Shown: positions 10,159-64,000, counted from the first letter of the stretch. The stretch: 64,000 bases of DNA from an uncultured delta proteobacterium (GCA_963851005.1 CAWKNI010000002.1:6156-70155), one strand, 5' to 3'. The notes: generated by a model not told the origin, from the letters alone. Translations and numbers: made by a program.

Positions 10159-11370
10159 ATGAAGGACATTTATTCGGCTATAAAAGTAACTGATAATGTT
10201 TACTGGGTTGGCGCCATCGATTGGACAATCCGGGATTTTCATGGATACACGACGCCCCACGGCAGCACATATAACGCCTATCTGGTGATGGCGGATGATA
10301 TTACCTTGATTGATACAGTTAAGGCGCCGTTTATGCGGGAAATGCTCTCCCGCATTAAATCTGTTGTCGATCCTCCCAAGATAAAATATATTGTTTCCAA
10401 CCATTCCGAGATGGATCATTCTGGCTGCCTGCCAGAGGTAATTGATTTCATTAAACCTCAAAAGGTTTTTGCTTCGACAGTCGGCGTAAAAACATTGAAA
10501 GAATTATTTCACGATGAGCATGAAATCATTCCCGTAAAAGATGGCGAAACGTTCAGTCTGGGTAATATGAATTTAACGTTTATGGAAACGCGCATGATTC
10601 ACTGGCCGGACAGCATGTTTACCTATCTGGATAAGGATGAGCTTTTATTTTCGCAGGACGCTTTCGGGATGCATTTGGCGACGCTGGAGCGTTTTGCCGA
10701 TGAAATTCCGGCGGCGACTCTGGAATATGAAGCGGCGACATATTATGCCAATATTGTTTTGCCTTATTCGCCGATAGTTCTGAAGGCTTTGGATAAGGTT
10801 GCGGCGTCAGGCTTGAAAATCAAAGTCATCGCTCCCGATCATGGGCCCGTCTGGCGCAAGGATATCGGCCGGATTATCGAGCTTTATAAGAAATGGGCCA
10901 TGCAAAAACCGACAGCGAAAGCTGTTGTTGTTTATGGCACTATGTGGCATTCTACCGAAAAAATGGCTAGCACCATCAGCGAGTCTCTTGCGCAGGAAGG
11001 CATCAAGGTAAAACTTATTTCCATGAATGAAACTCACCGAAGTGAAGTGGTTTACGAAGTGCTTGAAGCCGGCGCGCTGATAGTTGGGTCGCCTACATTG
11101 AACAACAACATTCTGCCGCAGATGGCGGATGTGATGACTTATCTGAAAGGATTGAAACCGGTAAATCTGATTGGCGCGGCTTTCGGATCATACGGCTGGA
11201 GTGGAGAATCGGTGAAACATCTGGAGACAATACTTAAGGAAATGAAGGTTGAAATCGCCGCTGAATCGATCTCCGTGAAGAATGTTCCCGATAATTCCGT
11301 TTTGGATAAATGTCGCGGGTTGGGGAAAACTATCGCGAAGGAGTTGCTCAAAAGGACGGGTGCCAATTAA
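10159..11370 (+). CDS. fprA: Flavodiiron protein (A-type flavoprotein / rubredoxin:oxygen oxidoreductase)
   Basis: Start moved to ATG 10159 (RBS AGAGGTGA). Metallo-beta-lactamase-like diiron motif NHSEMDHSG, followed by a flavodoxin domain VVVYGTMWHSTEKMA. Confidence 0.85.
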   Translation: MKDIYSAIKVTDNVYWVGAIDWTIRDFHGYTTPHGSTYNAYLVMADDITLIDTVKAPFMREMLSRIKSVVDPPKIKYIVSNHSEMDHSGCLPEVIDFIKPQKVFASTVGVKTLKELFHDEHEIIPVKDGETFSLGNMNLTFMETRMIHWPDSMFTYLDKDELLFSQDAFGMHLATLERFADEIPAATLEYEAATYYANIVLPYSPIVLKALDKVAASGLKIKVIAPDHGPVWRKDIGRIIELYKKWAMQKPTAKAVVVYGTMWHSTEKMASTISESLAQEGIKVKLISMNETHRSEVVYEVLEAGALIVGSPTLNNNILPQMADVMTYLKGLKPVNLIGAAFGSYGWSGESVKHLETILKEMKVEIAAESISVKNVPDNSVLDKCRGLGKTIAKELLKRTGAN

Positions 11371-49484: not shown

Positions 49485-49865
49485 TTATTTTCGTTTAGCG
49501 GCAGTTTTGCGTTTCACTGATCTGTTACCAGATACGTCATTAAACTCTTTAACCATACGGGCAACTTCTTTTCCTCTTGCCCTGTGTTGTTCAACTAATA
49601 CTTCCCGCATTAAAGTGCAGGCCTGAATGATTTTAGGGTTGGAAATCGAATAAAACAATTGCTGTCCTTCACGCCGGGATACAATAACCCCTTTTGATTT
49701 CAACACATTCATATGCTGGGACATGCTTACTTTGTTTAAACCAGTTTCGTGCATGATTTCCTGATTGGATATTTCTTTGTCTTTAAGCAAATTAATAATT
49801 TCCAAACGCTTATCATTGGCAAAAATCTTACAGATATCAGCCTGAAGCTTAAAAATATTTTTCAT
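49485..49865 (-). CDS. ArsR/SmtB-family transcriptional regulator
   Basis: 126-aa ORF with FANDKRLEIINLLKDKEISNQEIMHETGLNKVSMSQHMNVLKSKGVIVSRREGQQLFYSI. Confidence 0.85.
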   Translation of the reverse strand: MKNIFKLQADICKIFANDKRLEIINLLKDKEISNQEIMHETGLNKVSMSQHMNVLKSKGVIVSRREGQQLFYSISNPKIIQACTLMREVLVEQHRARGKEVARMVKEFNDVSGNRSVKRKTAAKRK

Positions 49866-54174: not shown

Positions 54175-54390
54175 TTAATGGTTTAGCCTAATGTTATCAT
54201 CAATTTCGATGCTTTCCTCTTGCCCCTGAGATTTGGAATTTACTCCTATAAGCACATCGAGTTTGTTGTTGATGCTTTCTAGATTTTTTACAATTTCATT
54301 GATTTGTGATGCCCAACGGAATAGAGCAACATAAATGGCTATATTAATACTTAGAAACAAAAGGAAAGTAATTATCGTATCATTTCCCAT
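54175..54390 (-). CDS. Small single-pass membrane protein
   Basis: 71-aa ORF with RBS GGGAGG, one TM helix (IITFLLFLSINIAIYVALF) and a coiled C-terminal part. Confidence 0.45.
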   Translation of the reverse strand: MGNDTIITFLLFLSINIAIYVALFRWASQINEIVKNLESINNKLDVLIGVNSKSQGQEESIEIDDNIRLNH

Positions 54391-54433: not shown

Positions 54434-54462
54434 ACTATAAAATTGTCGGTCCTGTATGTCAA
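54434..54462 (-). promoter_or_regulatory. Sigma70-like promoter (promoter-family member B)
   Basis: Minus-strand read: TTGACA (54457-54462), 17-nt spacer, TATAGT (54434-54439). Flanks CAAGATTTCATTGACATACAGGACCG and TATAGTTTA resemble member A. Confidence 0.55.
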
Positions 54463-54639
54463 TGAAATCTTGTGGTGTGAATTGTGTTTATTACGGATTG
54501 TAATGTTGGATATATTTCTAAGACAGCAATGTGTGGAAGTAAGAAATAACCTTGACACTCACTGTCAGGTTAAATTCTGTTTAGGGCACATCAATACAGG
54601 GAGCCTCCGGTCCCTACCGGTGGGGGCTCCACTACCAAA

Positions 54640-54750
54640 TTTTTTAAAATTAAATTTTTTCCTTGACAATAATTTGTCGGAGGATTAATGAATTTAATAG
54701 TTGGTTGAACGTCCAATCAAAATAAATAGAAGGATAATCAAATCGGGGGC
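54640..54750 (+). promoter_or_regulatory. Promoter-operator-leader module, copy 1 (upstream of the AOR operon)
   Basis: TTGACA (54663-54668), 17-nt spacer, TAATGA. After 9 nt comes the 20-bp near-palindrome TTGGTTGAACGTCCAATCAA (54701-54720; 16/20 self-complementary). The block is about 110 nt and alignable with 58505-58614. Confidence 0.6.
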
Positions 54751-54783
54751 GCTCTTAAGAAACCATTAATAGGAGGTAATGCT

Positions 54784-56697
54784 GTGGCGAGCAAATACAA
54801 GGGCTACATGGGAAAGATACTGGATGTGGATCTTACAATGGGGAATATCGGTGAGTATAACTTGTCGGATCGCGACAGGGAGCGGTTCATAGGAGGCAGA
54901 TACATCTCCACAAAGATACTCTGGGATCAAATGAAGCCCGGCATCGATCCGTTATCGCTCGATAATATTCTCATCGTAATGACATCTCCCTTGACCGGCA
55001 CAGGCGCCCCATCAACGAGCCGTTATGACATCTCCGCCAAGAGTCCACAGACAGGTACCATCGGACATTCCAACAGCGGTGGAAATTTCGGTATACATCT
55101 GAAGAGGGCAGGCTGGGATGGTGTAATAATCAGGGGAAGAGCAAATGCCCCAGTTTATCTGGACATTAACGAAGATAAAGTAACGATCAAGGATGCCTCA
55201 CATTTATGGGGAAAGGATATCGAAGAGACAAAGGAACTGATGGGCGACAAGAAGGCAGGCAAGATGGTCATCGGTCCGGCCGGAGAGAACCTTGTAAGAT
55301 ATGCAATCGTAGTTTCCCAGGACAGGGCACACGGGCGTTCAGGCATGGGTGCGGTGCTGGGATCGAAGAACCTCAAAGGCATTGTTGCTCAAGGGAAGAA
55401 AAAGATTGAACTCCATGATCCGGAAGGTTTCCGGGAAACCATCAAGAAGTGGATAAAAATGCTCCAGGCGCATCCGGCAACGGGCGAGTTCGCCCCCAAG
55501 TATGGCACATCGGGGTTTTTGAAATCAATATCCGATCATAACGCTCTTCCCACAAAGAATTTCTCTTCAGGTCACTATGAGGATGCCCAAATGCTTACGG
55601 GCCAGACCCTTGCCGAAACAAGGCTTATAAAGAACGACGGTTGCCAGTCCTGCCCGATACGCTGCGCCAGAATCGTGGAGCTTGACGGCCGTCAGATCAA
55701 GGGACCTGAGTATGAGGTCTTGTGTCTGCTGGGGTCAAATCTGCTCATCAATGATATGGATGCGATCATACGCTGGAACTATGAACTGGACATTCTGGGA
55801 CTTGATACAATTTCTACCGGTACGGTGCTAGGCTTTGCGGCCGAGCTCAATGAAAAGGGCATGTGGAAGAATGGCATTGAATTCGGAAAAAAGGATAACA
55901 TCTCGGCTGTTATACGGAATATTGCTTTGCGCCAGGGCATCGGCGCAGATCTGGCCGAAGGCGTGCGGTACCTTTCGAAGAAATACGGCGGGGAAGATTT
56001 TGCTCCTCATTCCAAGGGCATGGAATTCGCCGCCTACGAACCTAGGGGAGCTGTCGGCCACGGCTTAGGCTATGCTACGGCAAACCGTGGCGCCTGCCAT
56101 CTTGATGGCGGTTATATGATCTATTTTGAGGCGACCGGTCCGGCAATCCTCGATCCCTACGACTACCGGTCCAAGCCGAGTTATACCATATTAGATCAGA
56201 ATCTCCTGTCCTCAATCAGCGCCGGAGGAAGTTGTCTGTTTACATCTTGGACAGTCCTGCCTTCCATCACCTTCAAGGTACCGAATTCCAAGATCGTGAG
56301 CTGGCTGGTCACGCAGATATTGACATATTCATGGCCCACAATAGAACTTACCTTGAAAATGCCATCCTTTATGATGAGATATCACCTCCCTATGCTTCCT
56401 CATTCCAAAGCCATAAAACAGGCTACAGGCATGGATATGGATTTCGGAAGATTCATCAGGATGGGAGAGAGAGGCTTTACTCTGGAACGGCTTTTTAATA
56501 CACGAGAGGGATTTTCCGCCAAGGAAGACACACTGCCCAAACGGTTCACCGATGTAGAACAGATCCCCGGGAAGACCAAGACAAAGGTTCCCCTCGGTAA
56601 AATGTTGCCCGCGTATTACAAGCTACGGGGGTGGGATGCAAACGGTATCCCGACGGCTAAGACACTGAGGAAGCTGGACTTGGAGGATTTGCTATGA
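54784..56697 (+). CDS. Tungsten/molybdopterin aldehyde:ferredoxin oxidoreductase (AOR family)
   Basis: 637-aa ORF with a GTG start after AGGAGG. YMGKILDVDLTMG..., GGRYISTKILWD, CQSCPIRC, and GLDTISTG are typical of AOR N- and C-terminal domains. Confidence 0.92.
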   Translation: MASKYKGYMGKILDVDLTMGNIGEYNLSDRDRERFIGGRYISTKILWDQMKPGIDPLSLDNILIVMTSPLTGTGAPSTSRYDISAKSPQTGTIGHSNSGGNFGIHLKRAGWDGVIIRGRANAPVYLDINEDKVTIKDASHLWGKDIEETKELMGDKKAGKMVIGPAGENLVRYAIVVSQDRAHGRSGMGAVLGSKNLKGIVAQGKKKIELHDPEGFRETIKKWIKMLQAHPATGEFAPKYGTSGFLKSISDHNALPTKNFSSGHYEDAQMLTGQTLAETRLIKNDGCQSCPIRCARIVELDGRQIKGPEYEVLCLLGSNLLINDMDAIIRWNYELDILGLDTISTGTVLGFAAELNEKGMWKNGIEFGKKDNISAVIRNIALRQGIGADLAEGVRYLSKKYGGEDFAPHSKGMEFAAYEPRGAVGHGLGYATANRGACHLDGGYMIYFEATGPAILDPYDYRSKPSYTILDQNLLSSISAGGSCLFTSWTVLPSITFKVPNSKIVSWLVTQILTYSWPTIELTLKMPSFMMRYHLPMLPHSKAIKQATGMDMDFGRFIRMGERGFTLERLFNTREGFSAKEDTLPKRFTDVEQIPGKTKTKVPLGKMLPAYYKLRGWDANGIPTAKTLRKLDLEDLL

Positions 56698-56853
56698 TCT
56701 TAAGTATGAAGAGGTGAAGGGAGAATACAGCGCAAAAACATTGCCGGTGGGAGTGCTGGCCGCGTCTGCGGATTTTTGTTCATGATAATTAGACCGTTAT
56801 TGATATAGTCCAAGTATGAACAAGCAGTGTCTTACTGGAAAAAGAGGAAGGTA

Positions 56854-58488
56854 ATGGAATTTGATTTTGCAGTGATAGGAAGCGGTTTCGGGGGCAGTGT
56901 ATCGGCGTTGCGGCTTGCGGAAAAGGGATACAGCGTTGTCGTGCTGGAAAAAGGCAAATGGGTGACCCCCCTGGATATGGAAGACGCATCCAAAAGCTTG
57001 AACAAGCTTATCTGGAATCCTGCGCTGGGCATGAGGGGCTTTTTCACCTATGATTTCTTTCGGCATGTTTCCATTGTTGGCGGTGTTGGCGTCGGCGGCG
57101 GAAGTCTCGTTTATGCAGCGACCACATTGAGGCCGAAGCAAGCCTTTTATCAGGATTCGGCCTGGAGCAATCTCGGAATCGACTGGGAAAAGGAGCTGAA
57201 ACCTCATTATGATACCGCTTCTAAAATGCTGGGTATAGTTAGAAATCCGGTAATGGATGTCATGGACGACTACCTGAAAGACGTGGCGGAGAAAATGGGA
57301 GCGGGCGATACATTTGGTCCTACCGATACCGGCATCTACTTCGGGATACCGGAAGTGATTGTTGATGATCCCTTCTTCAATGGGAAGGGGCCTTCACGGT
57401 CAGGTTGTTATCTCTGTGGCGAATGTCTCACGGGATGTAAGCACGGTTCGAAAAATAGCCTGGACAAAAATTATCTCTATCTTGCCCAGAAATACGGGGC
57501 GACAATCCTGCCGTACCGGGAAGTCACAAACATTATTCCTCAACAAAACGGCACATATGTCCTGAAGGTAAAGGACAACTCCGGGCTGTGCAAAAAATCT
57601 TCCGATATTAAGGCAAAAAAAGTAGTCGTGGCGGCAGGTGTTCTAGGAACACTGAAGTTGCTGTTTAGATGCAAACAAGTCACAAAAACTCTGCCAGATA
57701 TATCCCGGCAGCTGGGTGTGGTTGTCAGGACAAATAGCGAATCCATTGTAGGTGTTTTGCCCAAACAGGAGGATTTGGATCTTTCCCACGGCACAACGAT
57801 ATCATCGGACTTTTATCCTGATAAATATACACATATCACCCAGAACCGGTTTCCCGAGGGCTACAGTTTCATGAAATATTTCAGCGTTCCCCTTGTGGAT
57901 GACGACCATCCCGTAAGGAGAACTCTGAGAACTCTGGGCAAGATGATTTTGAATCCTCTGGATATCTTTCGGGCAATTTTTGCTAAAAACTGGCACAAGC
58001 GAATCATCGTCCTGACCGTTATGCAGAACCATGACAACCAGCTTTCCTTCAAGTATGGCCCCAGCGCCGTGTTTTCTTTTTTGATGCGCCGTTTAAAGTC
58101 AAAGACCGTTCTGGGGAAAGAAGCGCCGGTAAATATTCCCGTGGCCAACAAGGCGTGCGCCATTCTGGCAGATGTAGCCCAGGGAATGCCCATCAATGTC
58201 AGCAACGAAAACCTGATGAATATGTCGACAACAGCCCATATTCTCGGCGGTTGCCACATGGGATCTTCTCCCGAGAACGGTGTTATCGACACATCACACC
58301 GGGTTTTCGGATACGATGGTCTTTATGTGTGTGACGGTGCGGCAGTTTCGGCCAATGTAGGCGTTAATCCCGCTCTTACGATCACGGCGCTTGCGGAACG
58401 GGCGATGAGTCTTATTCCGGATAAGAAATCAGCCCCGGATGGTTTTTTACGAAACGCCCCTAAATTAAGGATTTTACCGAACAATTAA
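56854..58488 (+). CDS. GMC-family FAD oxidoreductase (cholesterol-oxidase/alcohol-oxidase-like)
   Basis: Start moved to ATG 56854 (RBS AGAGGAAGG). FDFAVIGSGFGGSVSALRLAEKGYSVVVLEKG, and a C-terminal HILGGCHMG...VCDGAAVSANVGVNPALTI. Confidence 0.85.
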   Translation: MEFDFAVIGSGFGGSVSALRLAEKGYSVVVLEKGKWVTPLDMEDASKSLNKLIWNPALGMRGFFTYDFFRHVSIVGGVGVGGGSLVYAATTLRPKQAFYQDSAWSNLGIDWEKELKPHYDTASKMLGIVRNPVMDVMDDYLKDVAEKMGAGDTFGPTDTGIYFGIPEVIVDDPFFNGKGPSRSGCYLCGECLTGCKHGSKNSLDKNYLYLAQKYGATILPYREVTNIIPQQNGTYVLKVKDNSGLCKKSSDIKAKKVVVAAGVLGTLKLLFRCKQVTKTLPDISRQLGVVVRTNSESIVGVLPKQEDLDLSHGTTISSDFYPDKYTHITQNRFPEGYSFMKYFSVPLVDDDHPVRRTLRTLGKMILNPLDIFRAIFAKNWHKRIIVLTVMQNHDNQLSFKYGPSAVFSFLMRRLKSKTVLGKEAPVNIPVANKACAILADVAQGMPINVSNENLMNMSTTAHILGGCHMGSSPENGVIDTSHRVFGYDGLYVCDGAAVSANVGVNPALTITALAERAMSLIPDKKSAPDGFLRNAPKLRILPNN

Positions 58489-58504
58489 TCCGTACTTAAT
58501 TTAT

Positions 58505-58614
58505 TTTAAAAAAATTAAAATTTTTTCTTGACAATAATCGGAGGGAGGATTAAAGAAATAACAAGTTGGTTGAACGTCCAATCAAAAAATTAAGAGGATG
58601 ATCTCATCCGGGGC
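58505..58614 (+). promoter_or_regulatory. Promoter-operator-leader module, copy 2 (upstream of the PHP/thiolase-like operon)
   Basis: TTGACA (58528-58533), 17-nt spacer, TAAAGA. After 9 nt comes the identical TTGGTTGAACGTCCAATCAA (58566-58585). The leader block GAGGATGATC..ATCCGGGGC is shared with copy 1. Confidence 0.6.
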
Positions 58615-58638: not shown

Positions 58639-59187
58639 ATGCTATTAAAGGGATGTTTACATACGCACACAACTTGCTCGGATGGTAAACTGTCACCACA
58701 GGAAGTAGCCAATGAATATGAATCAAGAGGATATGATTTTATAGCTTTTACCGATCATGATTACTTGCTTAAGCCCAATTACCGGGAGATATACGGGCAG
58801 GTAAAGACAAACATGATCATATTTTATGGCATCGAGTTAAGCGTCTTTGTCAATGGAAATATACATGTGTCAAAAATTGAAGGTGAAAATGAGGTGCTAC
58901 ACATATTCAACCACATCGGCGAATACGACTTTACCCCGGAGCAGTTGCTGGTTCGGCTGGCGGAACTGGAAAAGAAGTATCCTCTAGATGCGGTGGAAAT
59001 AACGACAAAAGGGTATCGCGATATAGTTTTTGAATCACTCGATATAGCGTATCCCAAACTGGCATCTGATGACTCGCACACACTGGGCGGTATCGGCAGG
59101 GCATGGATAGAATTGGACGCGCAGCGGAGGAAAGATTCCATCATAAGAGCGATAAAAAAAGGAAAATGTTGGAATTGCTACATATAA
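58639..59187 (+). CDS. PHP-domain metal-dependent phosphoesterase-like protein
   Basis: 182-aa ORF. CLHTHTTCSDGKLSPQEV...GYDFIAFTDHD fits the PHP motif pattern. Confidence 0.75.
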   Translation: MLLKGCLHTHTTCSDGKLSPQEVANEYESRGYDFIAFTDHDYLLKPNYREIYGQVKTNMIIFYGIELSVFVNGNIHVSKIEGENEVLHIFNHIGEYDFTPEQLLVRLAELEKKYPLDAVEITTKGYRDIVFESLDIAYPKLASDDSHTLGGIGRAWIELDAQRRKDSIIRAIKKGKCWNCYI

Positions 59188-59242
59188 CAAAAGAGGATTT
59201 ATATAATCCTTTATAAAGTCACATCAAATAGGAGGAATGGTA

Positions 59243-60397
59243 ATGGCGAAAAAAATTGCCGTCTGCGCAGTGGCGCAGATTAAAAATGATCCGGAATACA
59301 AAGATCTTCGTTTCCAGAACATGCTGCTCGAGTGTTTCGAGTCAATCATGGACCAGACCAAGGTTACCTTCGACATGGATAAAGGCATCAGAACCATCAT
59401 CACGTGCTCGGATGACGTGTTCGATGCGCGAACCATATCCAACAACGGCATAACGGATGTCGTGGGCGCGCACTTTCGGGGCGAGGAAAAGATGGCACAG
59501 GAGAGCATCAATGGCTTGGGTTACGCTATGGCATGCATACTATCAGGCCATGATGACTTGATCCTTTTCATGGGTCACTGCAAGGAGTCCCAGGGCGAAA
59601 GCCGCAGGATGGTTTCCAACTTGGCCTATGATCCGTTCTACTGCAGGCCTCTCGGTATGGACTATCACAACGCAGACGCCTTACAGGCTCGAGCTTACAT
59701 GGAAAAATCGAAAGTAACTGACGAACATCTTGCCAAAGTAGTGGTACGCTCGCGGAAGAATGCGAAAAATAACCCCTATGCGCGAAAGAATAAAATTGTA
59801 ACCGAAAAAGAAGTGATGAATTCGCCGATGTATTCGGACCCGTTGCGTGAACTGCACATTTATCCGGTCACCGACTGGGCGTATGGCATGCTCCTATGCA
59901 GCGAAGAACGGGCGAAGGAGTTTACAAAAAAACCCGTATGGATTACCGGGTACGGGAGCTGTATGGATTCATATTTCCTCGGTGATAAGGACATTACCTC
60001 AAATTTTTCACTTAAAAATGCGGCACAGCGGGCATACGCCAAGGCCGGTATAAAAGATCCCAGAAAAGAGATTCAGCTTTTCGAGCTTAGCGACCACGCC
60101 GCATACCAGCTTCCGATGTGGGCCGAAGGTGTCGGCATTGCCGATGAAGGTAAAGGTGGCAAATGGATCGACGACGGCGGCATGGATAAATTTAATCTCA
60201 ACCTGTCAGGGGGACAGCTCAATGGCAATCCTCTTCTTCTTGGGGGTGCGGCCAGAGCCATTGAATGTTACTATCACCTATCCAATCAGGCAGATGACCG
60301 CCAGGTAAAGGGTGCAAAGCGGGCAGTCGCCCAGGCGGCAACCGGCGGGGCCGGGCAGCATCAGGCCGTAATCGTAATGGAAGCGCAGGGAGGTTGA
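59243..60397 (+). CDS. Thiolase-like protein A (SCP-x/DUF35-partner type, non-canonical active site)
   Basis: Start taken at ATG 59243 (6 nt after GGAGGA). Thiolase-fold length and layout. The C-terminal block NLSGGQLNGNPLLLGGAA sits where thiolases have N.SGG....GHP.GA.G. Confidence 0.8.
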   Translation: MAKKIAVCAVAQIKNDPEYKDLRFQNMLLECFESIMDQTKVTFDMDKGIRTIITCSDDVFDARTISNNGITDVVGAHFRGEEKMAQESINGLGYAMACILSGHDDLILFMGHCKESQGESRRMVSNLAYDPFYCRPLGMDYHNADALQARAYMEKSKVTDEHLAKVVVRSRKNAKNNPYARKNKIVTEKEVMNSPMYSDPLRELHIYPVTDWAYGMLLCSEERAKEFTKKPVWITGYGSCMDSYFLGDKDITSNFSLKNAAQRAYAKAGIKDPRKEIQLFELSDHAAYQLPMWAEGVGIADEGKGGKWIDDGGMDKFNLNLSGGQLNGNPLLLGGAARAIECYYHLSNQADDRQVKGAKRAVAQAATGGAGQHQAVIVMEAQGG

Positions 60398-60400
60398 ACA

Positions 60401-61600
60401 ATGGCACATAAAAAGAAAAATAGAAATGTTGGAATAATAGGTGTTGGACAGACAAAACATTCCAGCCATCGGGAGGATGTCAATCAGCCTGAGTTGATCT
60501 ATGAAGCCGTCAGCCTTGCTCTTAAAGATGCAAATCTGACCATGAAGGACATCGATTGTGTCGTTCACGGCAATATGGAGCTCTTTGAGATGGTTCACTC
60601 GCCGGATCTCTGGCATGTGTTGGGAACCGGCGCCTATGGAAAAGATTGCATTAGGATCACGACCGGTGGAACTGTCGGGGCTACCATTTCATGCGCTTCA
60701 GACAATCTCGTGGCGTCGGGGATGTATGATATCGTAATGGCCATCGGTTTTGAGAAACTGCAGGAAGGGCACACTACCGGCGGCATCACCAACATGGCAG
60801 ACCCTCTCTGGTTCAGGAAAATACAGGCTGGCGCGCTTACCGGGTCCTCGGCTTATGATGTCGAACGGGAATTCGGCGTTGAGCGTGCGGACAAGGCATC
60901 GCTGATATATCGCATCATCATGGATAAGCACGCGGCGCTTAATCCCAACGCACACCGCGCCTTTGGCCTTGAATTCAGCCAGATCGACGACCTCATCAGG
61001 ACTTCACCGAAGCTCGTCGGCAATCTCAAGCTCATCGAAATGTGTTCGCAATCAGACGGAGCATGCTGTGTCATCTTCGCCTGTGAGAAGAAAGCAAAAG
61101 ACCTAACCAAGACGCCGGTTTGGATACGAGATCATATCACCGTTCACAAGGAAGAAACATTCAACATATTCGGATATAACAGAGCATTTCCTGTTATGAA
61201 GTCGCATAAATTTGCGGCGGAACAACTCTTCAAGAGGAACGGCATTACAGACCCCTTAAATTATTTTGATGTTTTTGAAATGTATGATCCGGCCTCATGG
61301 TGGGCCATTGACTGGCTCAGAGACTTCTTCGACCTGAAAGGTGATGAGCATCTCAAGCTCATTGAAAATAAGGAGATCATGATTGGTGGCAAAATGCCCA
61401 TTAACCCGTCAGGCGGCGTGATTGGCTCGAACCCAATCGGCGCGACCGCGCTGATCAGAGTGGCCGAAGCGGCTATGCAGGTGCGCGGCAATGCCGGTCC
61501 GCACCAGATACCGACTCCGGTCAATCACGCTCTGGCGTCAGGGTTCGGCGGCACCATGTGGACAGTGCTGACAATGCTCGAGAAGGAACTTAACTGGTAG
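60401..61600 (+). CDS. Thiolase-like protein B (SCP-x type, non-canonical active site)
   Basis: 399-aa ORF. RNVGIIGVGQTKHS, candidate nucleophile region TISCASDNLVASGMYD, and C-terminal INPSGGVIGSNPIGATA (SNP where GHP is expected). Confidence 0.85.
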   Translation: MAHKKKNRNVGIIGVGQTKHSSHREDVNQPELIYEAVSLALKDANLTMKDIDCVVHGNMELFEMVHSPDLWHVLGTGAYGKDCIRITTGGTVGATISCASDNLVASGMYDIVMAIGFEKLQEGHTTGGITNMADPLWFRKIQAGALTGSSAYDVEREFGVERADKASLIYRIIMDKHAALNPNAHRAFGLEFSQIDDLIRTSPKLVGNLKLIEMCSQSDGACCVIFACEKKAKDLTKTPVWIRDHITVHKEETFNIFGYNRAFPVMKSHKFAAEQLFKRNGITDPLNYFDVFEMYDPASWWAIDWLRDFFDLKGDEHLKLIENKEIMIGGKMPINPSGGVIGSNPIGATALIRVAEAAMQVRGNAGPHQIPTPVNHALASGFGGTMWTVLTMLEKELNW

Positions 61601-61610
61601 GAGGATAATC

Positions 61611-62801
61611 ATGGCAGAATACTGGGGAATAAAAGTAGAAGATATATTCAATACGATGAAAGAGCGTTTCCGTCCCGAAGGCGCTAAGGATGTCGATGCG
61701 GTTTTCGGTTATGATATCGAAAACGAGGGGAAATGGAAACTGACGGTAAAGAACAACGAAATGGTGATCGAGAAGACCGACAACCTTTCCGGATGCATTG
61801 CGACTATGAAAGCCGACGGCGAGACGTTTGTTGGAGTAAATACCGGCAAAGTTGACGCCACGAACGCCTTCATGAGCGGTAAGGTCAAGGTTGAGGGCGA
61901 CATCGGTGCATTTGGGAAGACCGGCAAACTCTTCCGCAAATATGTGATTGCCAAGAAGGAGATGACGACGAAGGATTATCTCGCAGACATGTTCGCGACG
62001 ATTGTGCCGCGGTTCAAGGCTAAAGAGTCCGAAGGGATTGAAGCCTCTTTTGCTTTTGATCTCGGCGGAGCGGACGGCGGCAAATGGACCGTTTTCATAA
62101 AGGATAAAGTATGCACGGTCACGACGACCATCGAGGGTAAGCCAACGGTTACGCTGGAATTCAACGAAGCTAGAGATTATGTCGATTTTATACTTGGGAA
62201 GATTGACGCTCAGAGCATCCTGGCTGCGGGAAAGGCTGCTGCCAAGGGCGATATCAATATGATGGCGACAAAGTGGCCTGTGTTGTTTGAAAAATACAAA
62301 GATCCCATGGCCGGTGCTGTGCAGGAACAGGAACTGTTGGTGCTAAAAAAGACCATATCTGTCGACCAGAAGTTTTCCACCGGCCCCGTCATGGGCAAGT
62401 TCCTCAAGGGATTGAAAGATAAAAAAATATACGCGAATAAATGCCCCAAGTGCGGTCGCTTACAGCTGCCGCCGCGGGAAGTGTGTGCCGAATGCCGGGT
62501 GCGCGCCACTGATTTCCTTGAGGTTGGCCCAAAGGGTGAAGTCCGCTATATGGACATAGTCTACTACGCCATGCCTGATCCGCTTACCGGCGTGGCCAGA
62601 GAAACCCCGTACGGGTCGATCTTTGTCCTCCTGGACGGATGTACAGGCAATGAAACCCTGACACATTTTATCAGAAAAGACCAGATAGAGAAAATCCAGC
62701 TGGGATGGAACGAGAAAAAGGGTACACGTGTCCGCCCCGTCTGGGAGGAAAATAGAATCGCTGATATCTGGGATATTAAATATTTTGAAATAGATGAGTA
62801 A
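61611..62801 (+). CDS. SCP2 - SCP2 - DUF35 (zinc-ribbon/OB-fold) fusion protein
   Basis: 396-aa ORF. Two sterol-carrier-protein-2-like units (..TNAFMSGKVKVEGDIGAFGKTGKLF; ..ILAAGKAAAKGDINMMATKWPVLF), then the zinc ribbon CPKCGRLQLPPREVCAEC and an OB-fold. Confidence 0.8.
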   Translation: MAEYWGIKVEDIFNTMKERFRPEGAKDVDAVFGYDIENEGKWKLTVKNNEMVIEKTDNLSGCIATMKADGETFVGVNTGKVDATNAFMSGKVKVEGDIGAFGKTGKLFRKYVIAKKEMTTKDYLADMFATIVPRFKAKESEGIEASFAFDLGGADGGKWTVFIKDKVCTVTTTIEGKPTVTLEFNEARDYVDFILGKIDAQSILAAGKAAAKGDINMMATKWPVLFEKYKDPMAGAVQEQELLVLKKTISVDQKFSTGPVMGKFLKGLKDKKIYANKCPKCGRLQLPPREVCAECRVRATDFLEVGPKGEVRYMDIVYYAMPDPLTGVARETPYGSIFVLLDGCTGNETLTHFIRKDQIEKIQLGWNEKKGTRVRPVWEENRIADIWDIKYFEIDE

Positions 62802-62812
62802 GGAGTAAGTAT

Positions 62813-64000
62813 ATGACAAAAAAGCAAATGAAAGGTTATGAAGACAGCTTTGTGGTTGAAGGTAAAATGGCGCTCCCTTATACTTACTTCGCCGGCCGGG
62901 TTGGCAGCAAGTTCATCACAACCATCCGGGACCAGAAGAAAATCATGGGAGTGAAATGTCCTGCCTGCAATATCGTCTATCTGCCGCCAAGGCAGGTATG
63001 CGAAAAGGACTTTACCGACATCCGCGACAAATGGGTCGAGGTAAGTAATACCGGCAGAGTTACCAACTTCACAGTGGTGCGCTATGACGACAAGCACCTG
63101 CCAAGGAAAGCGCCCTTTGTGCTGGCCCTTATAAAATTGGACGGCGCGGATACGCCTTTTATGCATATTCTTGAGGAATGCAAAATAGAGGACGTAAAGA
63201 TAGGTATGAAAGTAGAGGCGGTTTTCGCCAAAGAAACGACGAACACCATTCTGGATATTGATCATTTTAAACCGGCGCCTGAAAGAGTTTCTGTTCACGA
63301 GATTAACGCGGCCAGGAAGCAATGGGTTCCCGAAGATGAACCCGATACTAAAGAAAAACGAAAAGGAGGCAAACCCAATATGTCAAAACCCGTTATTATC
63401 ACCGCGGCGCTTACCGGAGCTGCCACAATGAAGAATCAAAACCCGTCAGTGCCTTATACACCGGCGGAGTTCGCGGAAGAAGCATACAAGTGCTGGAAAG
63501 CTGGAGCGGCCATGGTGCATGTGCATGCCCGTGAAGAGGGAGGTATGGCCACCCATGATCACGCGAGAATCAAGGCAACCTACGATGCTATTAAGGACAA
63601 ATGTCCGGACATCATTGTCTGCCTGACCTCCGCAGTCGGCATGAACAAAACAACAGAGCAGCGGTTATCCCAGATCGTGGCGATCAAGCCCGAAGTGGCG
63701 TCGCTGAACACCAACACGATGAACTTCGGCATCGTTGACCGCAAAACAGGGAAGATATTCATCGATTATGTGTTTGAGAATACTTTCACCATGCTGCAGG
63801 ATTTCGGCAAGGCTATGGAAGAAAACAGTGTGAAGCCGGAAATCGAGTGCTACGATATGGGCGGACTCGACAACGCCATTCTGATAGGCAAGCAGGGTAT
63901 CTTCACCGACCCGATGAACTTCAATTTCGTCTGGGGAGTCGCGGGTGGACAGCAGTTCCGGGCTGAATCATTCATTGCCATGATGAACGCGCTTCCCGCG
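62813..64000 (+). CDS. DUF35 (zinc-ribbon/OB-fold) protein fused in frame to a BKACE-family (3-keto-5-aminohexanoate cleavage-like, DUF849) enzyme; 3'-partial
   Basis: Not in the ORF track. ATG 62813 follows AAGGAG. I read all 396 codons to the window end without a stop. The DUF35 part has CPACNIVYLPPRQVC...GRVTNFTVV. A ~37-aa linker follows, then MSKPVIITAALTGA...PYTPAEFAEEAYKCWKAGAAMVHVHARE (BKACE signature), starting at an internal ATG 63380 that has its own AAAGGAGG. Confidence 0.75.
   Translation, partial: MTKKQMKGYEDSFVVEGKMALPYTYFAGRVGSKFITTIRDQKKIMGVKCPACNIVYLPPRQVCEKDFTDIRDKWVEVSNTGRVTNFTVVRYDDKHLPRKAPFVLALIKLDGADTPFMHILEECKIEDVKIGMKVEAVFAKETTNTILDIDHFKPAPERVSVHEINAARKQWVPEDEPDTKEKRKGGKPNMSKPVIITAALTGAATMKNQNPSVPYTPAEFAEEAYKCWKAGAAMVHVHAREEGGMATHDHARIKATYDAIKDKCPDIIVCLTSAVGMNKTTEQRLSQIVAIKPEVASLNTNTMNFGIVDRKTGKIFIDYVFENTFTMLQDFGKAMEENSVKPEIECYDMGGLDNAILIGKQGIFTDPMNFNFVWGVAGGQQFRAESFIAMMNALPA

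Follow-up and report, generated by a model that had tools for sequence, protein, structure and literature searches.

Two neighbouring operons of an uncultured delta proteobacterium carry nearly the same promoter region, and this raises the question of what such a shared region might do. The DNA analysed here (GCA_963851005.1 CAWKNI010000002.1:6156-70155; hereafter the window) is 64,000 nucleotides long and corresponds to G000:C2:6156-70155, wherein G000 denotes the 3.4-Mb source genome; coordinates without a prefix are window positions. Module A (54640-54750) is located in front of the genes for an aldehyde:ferredoxin oxidoreductase (AOR) and a GMC-family oxidoreductase, and module B (58505-58614) is located in front of a long operon that begins with a PHP gene and continues with thiolase-like and DUF35-BKACE genes. 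A palindrome is found at the same place in both modules. From comparisons with related genomes we consider it likely that this palindrome is the operator of a BetI-like repressor of the TetR family, and that it forms a promoter-operator switch joining the transcription units.

The initial annotation had described the two segments as duplicates with a shared promoter, palindrome and leader. This description is borne out by the coordinates, by blastn (77 nt at 85.7% identity, E=9e-12) and by a MAFFT alignment over 200 nt, in which the mean column identity is 79%. An identical 24-mer (AGTTGG...AAAA) occupies 54699-54722 and 58564-58587, and within it the 20-mer TTGGTTGAACGTCCAATCAA forms operator A (54701-54720, + strand) and operator B (58566-58585, + strand). 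There is no other match to the 20-mer in the window at three or fewer mismatches; shuffled sequences contain a mean of 0.02 chance matches, and two matches were not attained in any of 100 shuffles. The 20-mer is an imperfect 20-bp palindrome with the halves TTGGTTGAAC and GTCCAATCAA, of which 16 out of 20 positions are self-complementary, as originally claimed. In both copies it is found 38 nt after the T of TTGACA.

The nucleotides around the palindrome are those expected for a promoter. In module A, an AT-rich and T-rich upstream tract that resembles an UP element (54640-54662, +) is followed by the -35 hexamer TTGACA (54663-54668, +), by a 17-nt spacer ending in GGAGGAT, and by a weak -10 hexamer, TAATGA (54686-54691, +). 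The corresponding parts of module B are an AT-rich and T-rich tract that aligns with that of module A (58505-58527, +), TTGACA (58528-58533, +), a 17-nt spacer and the weak -10 hexamer TAAAGA (58551-58556, +). The string TTTCTTGACA from the upstream tract occurs 36 times in the genome, compared with 10 expected occurrences. A gap of 9 nt had been reported between the -10 and the palindrome, and this holds for the 20-mer core, whereas the gap to the 24-mer is 7 nt. Because the palindrome begins 9 nt after the -10, it spans roughly +3 to +23 relative to the predicted transcript start. The alignment also places the two leader blocks where they had been annotated, namely GAAGGATAATCAAATCGGGGGC at 54729-54750 (+) and GAGGATGATCTCATCCGGGGC at 58594-58614 (+). 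Block B includes a small GGATGA/TCATCC hairpin that is not kept beyond close relatives. These features support a model wherein each module consists of a sigma-70-type promoter with a predicted start site, followed by an operator just downstream of the -10. A sigma-54 promoter was also considered for the palindrome and was rejected by inspection, given that the GG and GC elements do not have the -24/-12 spacing.

How many such sites does the genome contain? A search of all 3.4 Mb, which had been recommended as a check, returned one more good copy with the same geometry. There are three sites that match the 20-mer at three or fewer mismatches, and the next best has 4-5 mismatches. With a position weight matrix (PWM) built from 15 sites, operators A and B both score 29.0 bits and the third operator, site C, scores 27.1 bits. 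Site C (TTGGTTGAACGTCCAGTCAA) is located on another contig, at G000:C7:918585, and likewise begins exactly 38 nt after TTGACAAT. All three sites are upstream of genes and 38 nt after a TTGACA. The gene that follows site C encodes a 69-amino-acid B-box zinc-finger protein (L004 10182-10391, P0003). Module C is found only in G000, where it lies beside an IS110 transposase gene (L004 8466-9755, - strand), and the B-box orthologue of G015, which is 88% identical, has only a half-site in front of it. The next best PWM hit is a fourth site at C7:609643 (16.4 bits), which is directly next to a stop codon, in a gap that is not a promoter region, and probably occurs there by chance. Other families of the order encode small B-box-like proteins similar to the 69-amino-acid one, with as many as four copies in a genome.

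A block that recurs in this manner could also be a dispersed repeat, such as a repetitive extragenic palindromic (REP) element or a miniature inverted-repeat transposable element. However, the three copies of the module in 3.4 Mb are all promoter-proximal, and no copies were found at non-promoter positions of the genome. A genuine dispersed REP-like element does exist nearby, at 54600-54634 (+), upstream of module A and outside the duplicated module. It is a GC-rich, terminator-like hairpin of the form GGAGCCTCCGG(N)CCGG(N)GGGGCTCC, with 16 genomic copies by regular expression and about 20 by blastn at 85-88% identity.

Related genomes of at least 8 genera provide about 30 homologous promoters, all with the same layout: a T-run, CTTGACA, a spacer of 17-18 nt, TAnnnn, a gap of 7-9 nt, and TTGGTTGnnnGTCCAATCAA. 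The T-run before CTTGACA is kept in every one of these promoters, the -35 hexamer is invariant or nearly so, and only the TA of the -10 is conserved. Their spacers and leaders are otherwise unrelated. The exact 20-mer of G000 is found again, with both of its non-palindromic positions, in several genera and families, and variant sites in relatives retain the dyad TTGrTTGr..|..yCAAyCAA. In six promoters from five genomes there is a second operator that starts exactly 24 nt after the first. One of these second sites scores 7.0 bits and the other five score 10.8-18 bits, with the 99.9th percentile of the null at 8.1. A second operator is absent from the three G000 modules, and their leader block, which was tried as such a site, scores at the null level (-10.6, -11.4 and -5.7).

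These comparisons also bear on whether modules A and B are similar merely because a segment with a promoter was recently duplicated, in which case the palindrome would have no function of its own. Common descent does account for much of the shared leader, since in G015 the homology between the AOR promoter and the promoter and leader of PHP extends for about 230 nt. Relative to G015, module A of G000 has the REP-like hairpin in place of its upstream part, and its leader is shortened. Because descent from one duplicated segment best explains the resemblance, the leader block is most likely shared by this route. The palindrome is a different matter. The 20-mer is identical or nearly so in the approximately 30 promoters from several genera and families, despite complete divergence of their spacers and leaders, the third site of the same genome has a diverged context, and the site is tightly associated with a TetR gene. 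It is therefore very improbable that duplication is the whole explanation.

If the palindrome is an operator, which protein would bind it? The initial annotation had noted no obvious regulator gene between or next to the two operons. This is correct within the window, but there is a strong candidate in the same cluster, 8.4 kb beyond the window end. The candidate is a 202-amino-acid TetR-family protein (G000:C2:78591-79196) that matches the Pfam domains TetR_N (E=7.4e-15) and TetR_C_6, a BetI-type C-terminal domain (E=1.5e-11). Its gene shares the strand and the co-directional cluster of operator B, from which it lies about 13.9 kb downstream. In three relatives (G007, G016 and G018) the locus is reduced to the site, the TetR gene and acyl-CoA dehydrogenase (ACAD) genes. 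The TetR protein of G000 is an orthologue of those in G007 and G016 (60% identity), wherein a near-perfect palindrome, TTGATTGGTCGTCCAATCAA, lies 4 nt after TTGACA-17-TATTTA and precedes the TetR gene and then the ACAD genes. The palindrome is assigned to TetR specifically because of these minimal loci and because TetR is the sole DNA-binding protein encoded in the conserved cluster.

The distribution of the site across genomes argues for the same assignment. In a sample of 61 genomes, a match to the pattern is present in 9 of the 10 with the TetR gene and in 3 of the 51 without it (p=1.2e-7), although the match of G018, one of the nine, looked like chance sequence elsewhere, and the real site in that genome is just upstream of the TetR gene and has 4 mismatches. 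A local scan around the TetR gene of G044, the genome without a pattern match, likewise yields a site with 4 mismatches. For 301 genomes drawn from across the order, we then define a site as a match that departs from the perfect dyad at no more than three positions. By this measure there are 31 genomes with the site and 35 with the TetR gene, while a reversed control pattern is found in 5. Both are present in 22 genomes, only the site in 9, only the TetR gene in 13 and neither in 257 (Fisher p=1.4e-17). There are 13 genomes with the site upstream of the TetR gene, at a distance of 11.0-13.9 kb within one contig.

A wider collection of GTDB species genomes supplied 80 TetR loci, of which 23 have a site of at least 14 bits, compared with 3 in total for shuffled sequence. 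Most of these 23 sites are 35-184 nt upstream or 36-104 nt downstream of the TetR gene. Many of the 80 loci are from metagenome-assembled genomes of the Spirochaetota/Leptospirales (L101-L155), at 60-70% identity. The Spirochaetota carry variant operators directly upstream (TTGATTGGTCATCCAGTAAA) or directly downstream (TTGGTTGAAYGRTCAACCGA) of the TetR gene, and sites of the TCAACCGA type are also operator variants in this phylum. This suggests that the regulator and its operator were transferred as a pair between phyla.

There is a known operator that closely resembles the palindrome. The exact 16-mer TTGAACGTCCAATCAA of operators A and B is also present in Escherichia coli K-12, where it is read on the opposite strand as TTGATTGGACGTTCAA. 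The intergenic region between betI and betT reads TTATTGATTGGACGTTCAATATAA, and its reverse complement carries TTGAACGTCCAATCAA. This BetI box serves as the operator of an engineered BetI-repressible promoter (PMC7058928). Both boxes have one strong half-site (TTGATTGGAC) and a weaker one that contains TTGAAC, so the DNA-reading part of the regulator would be of the BetI type. The proteins are also alike in the region of the recognition helix, which is GLSTGLVHYYFKNK in the candidate and GVSTGIISHYFRDK in BetI, and in their BetI-type C-terminal domain. Moreover, both regulons include a GMC oxidoreductase and an aldehyde-oxidising enzyme. A literature search for the half-site strings returned only unrelated primer matches.

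The two systems nevertheless differ in several respects. The candidate regulator shares only 27% identity with E. coli BetI (E=2e-17). None of betA, betB and betT is among the regulated genes; the aldehyde enzyme is of the AOR family and the rest of the regulon is devoted to thiolase, BKACE, ACAD and hydratase chemistry. No choline transporter gene was seen among the annotated genes of these operons. The operator here is downstream of the -10, rather than across a divergent -35/-10 region.

The protein as a whole points to another group of regulators. Over its full length, the closest solved structure is that of FadR/YsiA from Bacillus subtilis (PDB 3whb and 1vi0), with E=3.5e-17 to 3whb over residues 14-196. 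The NCBIfam FadR model gives 78 bits, which is below its equivalog cut-off of 200. As with FadR, the regulator resides within a cluster and is predicted to control acyl-CoA dehydrogenases, hydratases and thiolase-type genes, although its operator is probably of the BetI type and not a FadR box. A further parallel is provided by KstR and KstR2 of actinobacterial sterol catabolism, which are TetR repressors with palindromic operators in front of several operons. However, no KstR family model matched the regulator, the KstR motif (TnnAACnnGTTnnA) does not fit the operator, and the organism here is an anaerobic member of the Syntrophales.

The proposal that the palindrome is a repressor operator, first made from its geometry, is thus supported by some 30 promoters of the same layout, by co-occurrence with TetR and by the 16-mer held in common with the E. 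coli BetI operator. The proposal that the two operons constitute one regulon is likewise supported by the comparative evidence, which extends it to the third operator at G000:C7:918585.

There are several findings that weigh against this assignment. The best NCBIfam match of the regulator is to BetI (TIGR03384), but its 93.6 bits are below the cut-off of 201.3; for NF001978 the score is 81 bits and the cut-off is 118. A scan with consensus promoters calls neither promoter A nor promoter B, because position 6 of the -10 is not T and the hexamers are weak. The invariance of an asymmetric 20-mer across genera is not explained by simple symmetric binding of a dimer. The co-occurrence statistics ignore phylogeny, and the association is in part the physical linkage of genes in one mobile cluster. 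Among the 9 genomes with only the site, most have chance-like matches with 3 mismatches or are fragmented assemblies, but the site of G019 looks genuine. The 13 genomes with the TetR gene and no site at three or fewer mismatches have mostly orthologues of about 48% identity. Finally, another copy of the REP-like hairpin (G000:C2:78525-78559; L020 ~10526-10560) lies directly upstream of the TetR gene, between it and the upstream genes of the cluster in G000, and co-transcription of TetR from promoter B is uncertain for this reason.

A different regulator might own the site, such as the MerR protein encoded near site C, an ArsR-type protein encoded at 49485-49865, or some unlinked factor. The MerR gene is 4.2 kb downstream of site C, a MerR operon is located just upstream of the AOR or PHP region in G015, G028 and G031, and the presence of MerR is weakly correlated with that of the site (p=0.03). 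However, MerR orthologues are found in 34 of the 61 genomes, most of which lack the site, and G050 has the site and no MerR gene. The thiolase-ACAD-MerR operon also has a strong promoter of its own, TTGACA-17-TATAGT, followed by another palindrome, CCAGTTAACGTAAGGTGG (G000:C7, L004 10506-10556), and this palindrome is kept in G012 and G031. The geometry is equally unfavourable. In MerR-type activation the operator is positioned between a -35 and a -10 that are separated by 19-20 bp, which is not the case here, and if the -35 is placed inside the palindrome there is no consistent -10 at that distance. MerR is rejected as the cognate regulator because its orthologues occur in genomes with and without the site and because its own operon has a separate promoter and palindrome. 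For these alternative regulators taken together, we consider ownership of the site unlikely. [quoted passage not shown] The MerR operon adjoins the main cluster in G012, G015, G028 and G031, unlike in G000, and G000 has therefore probably been rearranged.

With TetR as the preferred regulator, it is necessary to consider the sign of its action. Some TetR-type proteins, for example LuxR/HapR, activate transcription, and a TetR protein that acts as an activator or a dual regulator could offset the weak -10, whose final conserved T is missing in nearly all of the homologous promoters. BetI is reported to bind DNA in the presence as well as in the absence of choline (PMC2628434). However, a site centred near +13 is badly placed for activation. 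The -10 of G007 and G016 is closer to the consensus (TATTTA and TATTTT), and even there the site is directly downstream of it. TetR-family proteins in catabolic clusters are mostly repressors in the cases that have been studied. We infer repression rather than activation, and find an activator or dual regulator quite improbable at these promoters.

The 24-mer and the leader might instead function as RNA, perhaps as a 5' stem-loop that stabilises the mRNA, or as a riboswitch or other leader element. When transcribed, the palindrome can form a 7-bp hairpin (-5.3 kcal/mol, z=-2.3), and the A-to-G change in the third site preserves a U-G pair. However, Rfam yields no match at the gathering threshold or at E values up to 1, the whole leaders are no more stable than dinucleotide shuffles (z=+0.90, -0.65 and -1.35), and the minimum-energy fold of site C leaves the palindrome hairpin unused. 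The leaders downstream of the operator are unrelated and cannot be aligned outside close relatives. With a distance of 4 nt from the -10 to the start of the site in G007 and G016, the 5' arm is probably left out of the transcript there. In E. coli, moreover, this 16-mer acts as an operator for a protein. The earlier suggestion of an RNA element in the conserved leader thus finds no support in the Rfam result, in folding at the level of shuffled sequence or in conservation that is limited to close relatives, and an RNA role for the 24-mer and leader seems to us extremely improbable. A leader peptide was also considered and was rejected, as no conserved start codon follows the GGAGGA motif.

Binding by a TetR repressor remains the favoured interpretation, and the mechanism we propose is conventional, namely a repressor-operator switch of the TetR type with an operator of the BetI class. 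A TetR dimer on the operator would block RNA polymerase at the stage of open-complex formation or of promoter escape, and a metabolite of the pathway would release the repressor. By likeness to TetR proteins of the FadR/YsiA type, the inducer would most likely be an acyl-CoA. Release would turn on, together, the AOR-GMC operon, the operon that runs from PHP through the thiolase/BKACE genes to the TetR, ACAD and MaoC genes, and the B-box zinc-finger gene. The AOR-GMC pair would oxidise an alcohol or an aldehyde. Because TetR is encoded inside operon B, the repressor would also be autoregulated. Module A would be a copy of the promoter and leader of module B (about 230 nt in G015), which would have brought the AOR and GMC genes into the regulon.

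Three transcription units of an uncultured syntrophic anaerobe are tied by these data into one predicted regulon, for which a candidate repressor can be named. This arrangement supports the view that AOR and GMC belong to the same pathway as the unusual thiolase-like/BKACE/ACAD cluster. The identity of the inducer would point to the substrate of that pathway.

A broader interpretation is offered as a tentative possibility, and it is doubtful in its entirety. A DNA-reading head of the BetI type, with an almost unchanged BetI box, may have been re-used on a FadR-like sensor to govern an undescribed anaerobic pathway in Smithella-type syntrophs. The pathway might convert an alcohol via an aldehyde and an acid to a CoA ester and then cleave the side chain, with the GMC oxidoreductase, AOR, an aldolase-like thiolase/BKACE complex, ACADs and hydratases as its enzymes. 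As part of the same tentative interpretation, the promoter-operator unit would be a portable cassette that was copied in front of AOR-GMC in the lineage of G000 and G015 and, solely in G000, ahead of the B-box gene, and that travels with its regulator between the Syntrophales and the Spirochaetota.

The genes behind the modules are all encoded on the + strand. The first gene of operon A encodes AOR (54784-56697; Pfam AFOR_N, E=1.8e-71, and AFOR_C, E=3.1e-112) and the second encodes the GMC-family FAD oxidoreductase (56827-58488; Pfam GMC_oxred_N/C). The latter is cholesterol-oxidase-like, and its best NCBIfam match is to ChoxAB at 511 bits, under the cut-off of 850, while the betA model gives only 29 bits. 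By Pfam assignment, operon B begins with PHP (58639-59187), which is followed by two thiolase-like genes (59237-60397 and 60401-61600), SCP2-DUF35 (61611-62801) and DUF35-BKACE (62813 onwards, with the operon continuing past the window end at 64000). Past the window there are genes for a CoA ligase, the alpha and beta subunits of a CoA-transferase, a DUF35 protein, two thiolases, another DUF35 protein and a 296-amino-acid protein. The last part of the cluster consists of the REP hairpin, the TetR regulator, two ACADs and two MaoC hydratases.

In G012, G015, G028 and G031 both the gene order and the operator ahead of PHP are kept. The operator also precedes the PHP gene in G021, and G050 has the same gene order with the operator on a separate short contig. 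In G012 there is an operator downstream of the AOR gene (G012:C155:188-207), and the gene that it precedes is a different one, with MSKMQLKAVDKVEILTLQDN at the start of its product. Membership of the regulon therefore differs between species.

Tandem operators were observed at G019:C84:7004-7047 (L009) and at G031:C176:6131-6174 (L016), wherein TTGTTTGCACGTCCAATCAA is paired with another site 24 nt downstream. The search for a TetR orthologue found none in G019. The genes behind these tandem sites encode a signal-peptide repeat protein and, as judged by eye from its N-terminal sequence, a FadL/TodX-like outer-membrane protein, and they may be a transport branch of the regulon. Lastly, a strong match to a divergent promoter (TTGACA-17-TATAGT, 11 of 12 positions) is located at 54434-54462 on the - strand of the window and faces a small ORF at 54175-54390.

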